A DNA stretch of 64,000 nucleotides from Arenimonas sp. (GTDB taxonomy: Bacteria; Pseudomonadota; Gammaproteobacteria; Xanthomonadales; Xanthomonadaceae). Location of the stretch: NCBI RefSeq assembly GCF_035312645.1, contig NZ_DATGBO010000042.1, positions 27,701-91,700 on the forward strand, given 5' to 3'. The notes below the pieces were generated by a model. It was not told where the DNA came from and did not search any database. It saw only the letters and a program-made list of their open reading frames with translations. Below, one piece after another: positions 7,077 to 8,771 of the stretch. The translations under genes and the position numbers were made by a program. Positions within the stretch are counted from its first letter, which is position 1, and every line of letters starts with the position of its first letter.

Positions 7077-8771
7077 TCAGCCCGGCTTCACCAGCGACGT
7101 CACCTTGCGCGCGAAACGCTTGAAGAACGATTCCTTCGAAACCGTCGGCGACGCGGGCGCCGGTACGACCGGGGCCGGGCCCGTGGTCTTGGCGGCGATG
7201 TTTTCCGAACCGGGCGGACGCGGGCCGCGACGGCGGCGGGAATCATTTTCGCCGTACTCGCGCGGTGGCGATCGCTCCTGCGCATCCTGCGCCCGCGACA
7301 CTTGCACGTCCCTGTGCGGCGCGTTCGGATCACGCGGTGGACGCGGCGCGGCGTTCGGATCGCGCGGCGGACGCGCCGCACCCGACGACGAACCCTCGCG
7401 ACGCGGACCACGCGACGAGGAACCGGCGCCGTCGCGACGCGGGCCGGAGCCCGGGCCGCCGCGACCACCGCTGCCACCCTTCTTCGGGCCACGGCCGCTG
7501 GCCTCGAGCTCGGCGCGGGCTTCGCGGAAGATGTCTGCGATGCTTTCGACCGGCTCGCCGTCGGCACCAAGTACCGGCGCACGCGCCGGGCGCGGGATCG
7601 CGGTGAGCAGTTCGCTGGTCACCGATTCGACCGGAATCTTCTGCTCGATATAGGCCTCGATCGCCGGCAGTCCCTGCGCATAGATTTCGCAGGCGAAGCT
7701 GATCGCGTCGCCCTCGGCACCCAGGCGGGCGGTGCGGCCGATGCGGTGCACGTAGTCCTCGGCCTCGAACGGCAGGTCGAAGTTGTACACGTGCGAGACG
7801 CCGTCGATATGCAGGCCGCGCGCGGCGACGTCGGTGGCGACCAGGATCTCGAGTTCGGCGCGCTGGAATTTCGCCAGCAGCGTTTGGCGCTTTTTCTGCG
7901 GCACGTCGCCCGACAGCACACCGACGCGATAACCGGCGCGCTCCAGCGCGCGGCCGACTTTCTCGACCCAGGCCTTGGTGTTGACGAAAACCATGGTGCG
8001 GTTGGCGTCGGTGCGCGAGAGCAGGCCGATCAGCAGCGGCAGCTTCTCTTCGTTGGCGGGGAAATAAATCCGCTGGCGAACGCGCGACGCCGTGACGAAC
8101 TCGGCCTCGACGATGAGTTTTTCCGGCTCGTTCATGTGCTCGTAGGCGAGCTCGAGCACGCGATGGCTGAGCGTGGCCGAGAACATCAGGGTCTGGCGCT
8201 CCTCGCGGCGCGGCAGCTTGCGCAGCAGGAAGCGCAGGTCCTTGATGAAGCCGAGGTCGAACATGCGGTCGGCCTCGTCGAGGATGCAGACCTCGCAGGC
8301 ATGCAGGTGCACGACGCCCTGGCGGACGTAATCGATCAGGCGGCCCGGCGTGGCGATGATCACGTCGCAGCCGGAGGTGAGCTGGGCGCGCTGCTTGTCG
8401 TAGTCGACGCCACCGTAGATCAAGGCGAACTTGAGGCCGAGGCCGCCGCAGAATTTTTCCGCGTCCTTGTGGATCTGGATGGCCAGCTCGCGGGTCGGCG
8501 CCAGGATCATCGCGCGCGGATCGGCGGGGCCACGGTTGGCGAGGGCGGGTTTGGTCATCAGGCGGTTGACCAGGGTGACCAGGAAGGCGAGGGTCTTGCC
8601 GGTACCGGTCTGGGCCTGGCCGGCGACGTCGCGGCCGGCGAGCGAGATCGGCAGGGTCATCGCCTGGATCGGGGTGCAGCGGGTGAAGCCGGCGGCATCG
8701 AGGCCGGCGAGCAGTTGCGGTTGCAGGTCGAAGCTGGAAAAAGCGATGTCGGTCAGTGGCTTATCAGTCAT
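7077..8771 (-). CDS. rhlB: DEAD-box RNA helicase RhlB with low-complexity C-terminal tail
   Basis: [42 protein letters not shown]; divergent from trxA-rho as in other gammaproteobacteria. Confidence 0.9.
7266..7321 (-). repeat. 56-bp GGA-hairpin element, in frame within rhlB (copy 1)
   Basis: 49/56 nt identical to 46763-46818 by manual alignment; encodes [18 protein letters not shown]. Confidence 0.85.

Follow-up and report, generated by a model that had tools for sequence, protein, structure and literature searches.

We analysed a stretch of 64,000 nucleotides (nt) of an Arenimonas sp. genome (Xanthomonadaceae; contig NZ_DATGBO010000042.1, positions 27,701 to 91,700), hereafter the window, in which the gene of the ATP-dependent RNA helicase RhlB carries a short, hairpin-forming block within the part encoding its C-terminal tail. 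Our main finding is that this block is most likely a copy of a dispersed, apparently mobile element of 51 nt, which joined rhlB after the split from its nearest sequenced relatives. The membership of the block in a repeat family, the covarying structure of that family, the empty site in related rhlB genes and the filter on the reading frames of in-gene copies were all observed; the way in which the unit spreads we infer.

The host gene (7077-8771, minus strand; 564 amino acids, aa) was assigned from its open reading frame, its Pfam domains and the names of its orthologues, which their sources call RhlB. Its product joins a DEAD-box core, made of the DEAD (PF00270, residues 33-205) and Helicase_C (PF00271, 243-351) domains, to the RhlB-specific C-terminal region (PF12300, 376-542). 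The tail is rich in Arg, Pro, Gly and Ser, and is composed, in this order, of two RPPRDPNA repeats, a 17-aa block and PPREYGEN. The tandem repeat directly upstream of the block (18 aa; 7320-7373, minus strand) is native, and RPPRDPNA repeats are also present in RhlB orthologues that lack the element. Two registers of the block are equivalent: it can be read as the canonical unit CGCCG...GAGCGAT at 7271-7321 of the minus strand, which scores 73.8 bits with the covariance model R1 presented below, or as 17 inserted codons at 7269-7319, corresponding to residues 485-501, the minus-strand DNA of which is CCGCACAGGGACGTGCAAGTGTCGCGGGCGCAGGATGCGCAGGAGCGATCG (7319-7269). The initial annotation of the locus, made from the sequence alone, had described the sequence, its translation and its position right after the RPPRDPNA tandem repeat as we find them; it gave the block an extent of 56 nt and 18 aa, which has to be reduced to exactly 51 nt and 17 codons.

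The window protein was compared with its 120 best homologues. The four closest (P0002 to P0005, 83-86% identical and including Arenimonas oryziterrae) read DPNAPPRE without the block, where the window protein reads DPNA, the 17 aa and then PPRE. At the DNA level, taking out the 51 nt restores the orthologous codons, and the block is missing at exactly this point in P0002 and P0004. Among the 121 sequences, five have the block or a remnant of it, namely the window protein, the more distant orthologues P0007, P0010 and P0047, and P0036, the tail of which retains a decayed remnant (ARAQDAQDRPP). The alignment of RhlB C termini, which had been proposed as a check on the initial annotation, hence reveals a patchy block and not an invariant one. 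Moreover, the tails of P0047 (filled) and P0027 (empty) are almost the same, and what sets them apart is exactly 51 nt, with a junction ambiguity of at most 2 nt. The P0047 block is at the same nucleotide position as that of the window but is rotated by a few nucleotides, while P0007 and P0010 carry the block within one RPPRDPNA unit, and microhomology there amounts to 6 nt (CGCCGC). One type of hairpin 1, PHRDVQV, is common to the four filled tails. Judging by its letters, the Pro-rich RhlB tail (CCGCCG...), which resembles the 5' end of the unit, may be a preferred landing place.

When the 2.83-Mb assembly was searched by blastn with the rhlB copy, three further matches were obtained, in prlC, at the end of rsmH and on contig C27. 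The sister copy in prlC, also in the window (46768-46818, minus strand; 79.9 bits with R1), is in frame within the gene of oligopeptidase A (46070-48166, minus strand), where it encodes part of a loop before HEFGH, and it matches the rhlB copy over 33 nt with 1 mismatch. On contig C48, the copy that forms the C-terminal end of rsmH matches over 49 nt with 3 mismatches, and that at the end of contig C27 is partial. The covariance model detected seven copies in this genome, four of which are of a diverged type B (C15:21668-21753, C56:9140-9190, C75:6485-6534 and C120:8154-8204), with an inner stem GGC/GCC in place of the GCGC/GCGC of type A. Of the type B copies, one lies in the reading frame of mnmA, where 1.6 units follow QNWDDD, another is antisense to the final codons of leuA, and two are antisense near the 5' ends of PrpB-like and PhoH-like genes. 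A third type, C, forms an array of three tandem 51-nt units in an intergenic gap (C117:29191-29345, plus strand, locus L167; hairpins CCTACATGGATGTAGG and GGCGCAGGAGCGCC), and this array folds far better than its shuffles (z = -7.3). Overall, the genome contains at least three close and four diverged copies, plus the tandem array. A match in LeuC (C56:7173-7211, AAKDAQERR) looks like a chance similarity, not a copy.

The family extends well beyond this genome. With a 33-nt pattern and at most 3 mismatches, 61 related genomes yielded 17 sites, which were spread over 10 of these genomes, and the reversed control yielded none. An exact 30-nt core, searched in one genome per species, gave at least 120 stretches, mostly in Xanthomonadales; among the stretches listed, the carriers in this order were Arenimonas, Rhodanobacter, Dyella, Dokdonella, Thermomonas, Luteimonas and Stenotrophomonas, and those beyond it were Acidiferrobacterales, Nevskiaceae/Solimonas, a few other gammaproteobacterial metagenome-assembled genomes (MAGs) and some non-gammaproteobacterial MAGs. 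A census with the covariance model found the unit in 63 of 301 Xanthomonadales genomes, spread over 25 of 87 genera, with 1 to 16 copies each; genomes of about 5 Mb in the genus sample had no match to the model. The claim of the initial annotation that the rhlB block is the second copy of a repeat element is thus borne out by the prlC and C48 matches and by the empty reversed control, and the element, far from being confined to these two genes, has many other coding and intergenic copies.

In some genomes the unit, or GGA-loop hairpins like its own, are found in larger repeats. In a Stenotrophomonas-like genus (loci L216-L226; genomes G422, G415 and G404), the unit is the core of a composite repeat of about 130 nt, which begins with GGTAGGGTCGGTTCCCAAA, a GTAG-headed hairpin, and ends near GCATGACC; five to six near-identical copies of this composite in one genome suggest a recent burst. 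Larger non-coding repeats with four to five GGA-loop hairpins are present in genomes G015 (L154-L157) and G147 (L163-L165), and that of G147 is flanked by inverted repeats of about 20 nt (CGTGCACGCTACGTCCTCG ... CGAGGACGTAGCGTGCGCG), in the manner of a MITE (miniature inverted-repeat transposable element).

The unit has a common structural plan, in which hairpin 1, with a 5-bp stem and an A-N-GGA-N loop, is followed by a conserved AGUG and then by hairpin 2, in which an outer stem encloses an AGGA internal loop and an inner stem capped by an AGGAY loop. In the rhlB copy, hairpin 1 (7304-7317, minus strand) has the stem GCAC/GTGC, with a fifth A.C pair left open, and the loop AGGGAC, with GGA at 7309-7311; its sequence is GCACAGGGACGTGC (7317-7304), which contains ACAGGGACGU. 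The predicted fold of hairpin 2 (7271-7299, minus strand) has an outer stem GTCGC/GCGAT and an inner stem GCGC/GCGC. The rhlB block thereby holds three GGA triplets, one in the loop of hairpin 1, one in the inner loop AGGAU of hairpin 2 (7285-7287) and one in the 3' internal loop AGGA of the enclosing stem (7276-7278).

Both the covariation alignment and the model R1 comprise 122 distinct copies of the unit. Standard pairs fill 96.7% of the cells at the 14 proposed pairs, and the covariation score reaches 0.240, compared to 0.071 in shuffles (0 of 500 attain 0.240) and to 0.007-0.092 when partners are slid. The middle pairs of hairpin 1 covary (CG in 58 copies, UA in 33, GC in 17 and AU in 7 for one; AU in 65, GC in 30 and CG in 23 for the other), as does the outer pair 28-54 of hairpin 2 (CG in 84, UA in 34), and the inner stem of hairpin 2 flips from C-G to G-C in type B copies. 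The informative covarying pairs had been left free by the search pattern used to collect the copies. As for the loop of hairpin 1, its GGA is kept in 117 copies and the flanking loop positions are variable, ATGGAT being the commonest version (40 copies); GGA loops are also kept on the different stems of types B and C and of a Stenotrophomonas-like version. The single rhlB copy folds no better than shuffles in its GC-rich context (z = +0.58), so that the structural case rests on covariation. The copies go back to few active lineages, so that what can be read from this covariation is the element's need for its hairpins, and not selection in place on each copy.

The proteins that host the unit include PrlC, PurL, RsmH, MnmA, LeuA, UvrA, UvrD, GatA, LeuRS, ValRS, YihA, HrpA and a pyrroloquinoline quinone (PQQ) dehydrogenase. 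In-frame copies sit in the loops, linkers and tails of these and other housekeeping proteins, which agrees with the earlier proposal that the element lands in tolerant linkers or tails. Unrelated open reading frames share the repeat while orthologues lack it, empty and filled sites being found in both RhlB and PurL. We assigned the reading frame of the copies by third-position GC, and obtained 50 confident in-gene copies that represent 26 independent sites. One sense frame is used at 13 of these sites, another sense frame at 9 to 10 and one antisense frame at 3 to 4; the remaining three frames, which encode basic, Cys-rich or hydrophobic peptides, are used at none of the 26. A protein-level tolerance filter therefore acts on a nucleotide-level element. 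In-gene copies are sense rather than antisense by 23 to 4, versus the 2:1 expected from the tolerable frames (p = 0.028), and by 15 to 3 in an independent model-based sample; type B copies are often antisense. Copies that are confidently in genes make up some 30-40% of those examined (50 of about 130 and 18 of 60), and many of the others look intergenic.

Two observations concern individual hosts. In another Arenimonas genome (G010, locus L003), the unit is found at the same prlC loop as in the window but in the opposite orientation, which indicates either an independent insertion or an inversion in place. HrpA, a second RNA helicase hosting the unit besides RhlB, has two or three copies or remnants at different positions in Dyella and Rhodanobacter (L030 and L066).

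Junctions provide information on the mode of spread. Across the 122 copies, we found no terminal inverted repeats beyond the internal hairpins and no fixed target-site duplication, the features by which a MITE is recognized. The direct repeat flanking the unit is 0-2 nt long in 68 copies, 3-6 nt in 37 and at least 8 nt in 17, and several of the last class correspond to decayed second tandem units. Identity at an offset of 51 nt is raised over the first 5-6 nt of the unit only, a sign of microhomology or of a weakly preferred target (...^CG...) and not of target duplication. Tandem arrays have a period of 51 nt, and the added length always equals one, two or three periods, whatever the register. 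Taken together, the junctions and the whole-period additions suggest spread by copying of one period of a tandem or circular template, or by way of a hairpin or single strand, rather than by cut-and-paste.

The scheme we favour is a single-strand/hairpin, template-switch or rolling process that would copy one period of a tandem or circular template. New copies are seen as exact additions of 51 nt (or of 102 or 153 nt), and usually only 0-6 nt of microhomology ties the 5' end of the unit (CGCCG...) to the downstream flank. Selection would then retain those copies that keep the frame, that fall in a loop, linker or tail, and whose reading frame is one of the three yielding a bland peptide. The unit is defined by its nucleotides and structure rather than by a protein, and with selection on the frame the RhlB peptide would therefore be a by-product tolerated by the disordered Arg/Pro-rich tail; the mRNA copy of the unit could bind a dimer of the RNA-binding regulator CsrA/RsmA.

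The PurL linker is the extreme example of such matching: its native GCGCCGTACATC, which some 28 genera have with no element inserted, coincides with the opening 8-10 nt of the unit. We considered whether hairpin 1 could be templated by, or guided to, its target: this holds for PurL and for some prlC copies and is not general, a repeat of 8 nt or more being limited to the 17 copies mentioned above. An association with transposases was also examined. A Y1_Tnp transposase, of the IS200 type or of the type of tyrosine transposases associated with repetitive extragenic palindromes (REPs; the transposases are known as RAYTs), is encoded by 52 of the 63 carriers versus 149 of the 238 genomes without the unit (odds ratio 2.8; p = 0.0026, with no correction for phylogeny), and 11 carrier genomes have none, including complete genomes with four copies. 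This enrichment, along with the GTAG-headed composite in one genus, makes a REP/RAYT-like route possible but unproven; the transposase is enriched in carriers without being required, and the enrichment is confounded by phylogeny.

Could the block instead be an ancient part of the RhlB tail, inherited vertically and lost repeatedly and precisely, with no insertion at all? The shared PHRDVQV hairpin type in the window, P0007, P0010 and P0047 and the decayed remnant in P0036 would fit such a history, as would the variable number of RPPRDPNA repeats, the expansion of which could mimic shifts in position. We nevertheless judge it very unlikely: numerous genes with no relation to one another, as well as stretches between genes, contain the identical unit, which means that gain must take place; filled and empty tails are interspersed at 73-86% identity; two types of junction exist, DPNAP|...|PRE/PRA and RP|...|PRDPNA; and P0047 and P0027 are near-identical save for the 51 nt. 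Some shared ancestry with precise losses may still be part of the history, because all four filled tails have the same type of hairpin 1. It is even harder to credit that what the hosts share is a protein module, that is, a short linear motif of 11 aa selected for its function. A hydrophilic peptide does recur in the surface loops and tails of many proteins, but identical DNA is also translated in a further sense frame (13 sites) and an antisense one, and is present between genes; in addition, its nucleotides, third codon positions included, are more conserved than a peptide motif requires, and changes keep base pairs, not residues. We regard this explanation as extremely improbable.

Several points weigh against gain of a mobile element, which remains our preferred interpretation. 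No mobilizing enzyme was identified and no insertion event was seen directly. Presence and absence at a single site could in part reflect precise loss, and the non-gammaproteobacterial matches sit in MAGs, where binning errors could account for them. Finally, conservation across orders and the maintenance of the GGA loops exceed what a neutral selfish repeat would need, which hints at a trans-acting reader.

The consensus of CsrA/RsmA binding sites is RUACARGGAUGU, and two sites 10-63 nt apart are reported to accommodate one dimer (Dubey, 2005; Mercante, 2009). Measured against this consensus, the rhlB copy has a predicted site, with GGA in a loop, similarity to the consensus and a suitable spacing. 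It is conceivable that this site works, and that RsmA dimers alter the stability of rhlB mRNA or the traffic of Rho or ribosomes on it, which would link Csr/Rsm regulation and the degradosome in the way that the initial annotation suggested. In rhlB, 9 of the 10 positions of ACARGGAUGU, from the SELEX consensus, are matched by hairpin 1, and in 18 copies all 10 are; GGA is placed in the loops of covarying hairpins and persists in subfamilies with different stems; the two loop GGAs are 23 nt apart, inside the range for one dimer; in-gene copies lean to sense (23:4); and csrA is found in most of the genus (19 of 25 genomes). In this genome, however, neither tblastn nor the Pfam CsrA model found csrA/rsmA in the assembly (150 contigs, 95.8% complete), in which the hfq control was found; the absence is probably an assembly gap. 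Furthermore, the rhlB site lies some 1450 nt past the start codon and has no further one downstream, the closest RhlB orthologues manage without it, antisense copies exist (in prlC of G010, in leuA of the present genome and in a triple array of G015), and conservation among copies may stem from master copies, with no need for selection in place. We consider a working site in rhlB unlikely, although the copy looks, on paper, exactly like a CsrA/RsmA binding site.

Copies at gene junctions bear on the same question. The type A copy at C48:2051-2101 (minus strand, locus L168) forms the last 17-20 codons of rsmH, and the 3' AGGAG of rsmH copies lies 8 nt before ftsL in the genome of the window (GTG start) and 5 nt before it in G015 (L151, ATG start); given this spacing, the element appears to supply the Shine-Dalgarno sequence of ftsL. 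At further gene junctions (L052, L116, L122 and L265), the 3' AGGAG precedes the start codon of the following gene by 5-9 nt. In tandem arrays, the GGA hairpins number six or more. Near-consensus GGA hairpins, their spacing, arrays and AGGAG at junctions typify the RNAs that CsrA binds and the ribosome-binding sites that it represses.

A broader proposal, which we put forward as doubtful, is that the unit may be a portable, high-affinity cassette for CsrA/RsmA dimers, self-spreading among the genes and operon junctions of Xanthomonadales and other Proteobacteria, the insertions of which would rewire the Csr/Rsm regulon while the copies together would form a distributed RsmA sponge. If this were true, sense copies would put two or three GGA hairpins into mRNAs, the 3' AGGAG of junction copies would become the Shine-Dalgarno sequence of the next gene, the rhlB copy would be one wire into the degradosome, and the GGA loops would be kept since RsmA binding benefits the element or its host.

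Hairpin repeats that insert in frame have precedents. Ogata et al. are said to have reported in 2000 the Rickettsia palindromic elements (RPEs), which, like the intragenic REPs, resemble the 51-nt unit in being short hairpin repeats within unrelated housekeeping reading frames, where they leave the frame intact and add a tolerated peptide. RPEs are about 100-150 bp long, with a CGTC tag at one end as the stated criterion (PMC3733652). REPs are single stem-loops of 20-40 nt; GTAG- and CGTC-tagged REPs can be intragenic (Di Nocera et al. 2013, PMC3733652), and the CGTC class has stems of 8-9 bp and no known dedicated transposase (PMC3733652). The unit differs from both RPEs and REPs by its two hairpins within 51 nt, its low copy number (1-16), its conservation across several orders and its conserved loop GGA. 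Unlike GTAG/CGTC REPs, type A units have no GTAG or CGTC tag: their 5' end is CG-N-N-G (CGCCG, CGATG, CGACG...) and AGUG is internal. The unit is not a single GTAG-headed stem-loop, and a GTAG head is found only in the larger composite of one genus.

Another relative in appearance is the TwoAYGGAY motif (Rfam RF01731; Weinberg et al. 2010, PMC2864571), which is listed as an RNA that is probably not cis-regulatory. Both have two adjacent hairpins with (A)YGGA(Y) loops and occur in Gammaproteobacteria, but in the unit hairpin 2 is a nested two-stem structure, and its copies are scattered, in many cases within genes and in frame, and in some cases in tandem. A cmscan of the rhlB copy yielded neither RF01731 nor any other Rfam family at the gathering score, at E<=1 (6.5 kb) or at E<=10 (91 nt). 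As in CsrB, RsmY and RsmZ, CsrA-repressed leaders and RsmU, GGA is in loops, here two or three per 51 nt with a spacing suited to one dimer. RsmU of Xanthomonas derives from comEA's 3' untranslated region and sequesters RsmA (77-117 nt, 3-4 GGA; PMC7694677); it is the only RsmA-sequestering RNA described in the order. Rfam Csr/Rsm families matched the type C array only at chance level, the best being RsmW with 15.8 bits against a cut-off of 52 (E=1), and the triple array on C117, tried as a free-standing small RNA (sRNA) gene, was rejected as such, having no predicted sigma-70-like promoter or intrinsic terminator. A text search of the literature for the DNA or peptide strings of the unit returned no paper. 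The family is apparently an undescribed variant of in-frame hairpin repeats with a CsrA-like design, and the rhlB copy is an ordinary member of it.

With exactly 17 codons, the unit would rank among the smallest sequences known to spread by themselves in bacteria. It is almost letter-for-letter conserved over several orders and sits without harm inside essential genes (UvrA, UvrD, LeuRS, GatA, PurL, RhlB and HrpA). Its copies chart, in a natural setting, where these proteins tolerate insertions. Mechanistically, it poses the question of how 51 nt can be copied exactly without inverted ends or target duplication. Its loops match the CsrA/RsmA consensus, and the unit thereby suggests a way, open to testing, in which transposition could bring new targets under a global RNA regulator. 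For annotation, it explains odd 17-aa inserts and low-complexity patches of the type "RAQDAQER" or "AGAGCAGAA".

Other repeats and one RNA gene were noted in the window. An abundant family of GTAG-headed REPs, GTAGGAGCGAC/T...GTCGCGAC, often occurs as inverted doublets (1528-1597, 2335-2365, 3521-3658, 25719-25757, 26542-26653, 28661-28700, 29579-29609 and 32363-32407), and there is a resemblance between its head, AGGAGCGAC, and the 51-nt unit's 3' end (CAGGAGCGAC). A different type of repeat, at 19453-19548, is a near-perfect inverted repeat with 42-nt arms that are 90% complementary and a 12-nt spacer (CGTCATTCCCGCGAAGGCGGGAATCC...). The sole Rfam family at gathering score within the window is sX13, an sRNA of Xanthomonadaceae (40389-40504, plus strand; 66.6 bits against a cut-off of 50). 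Finally, a long coding region at about 14700-18200 is made of tandem repeats of 261-279 nt (families D1-D11), and probably encodes a large repetitive surface protein.

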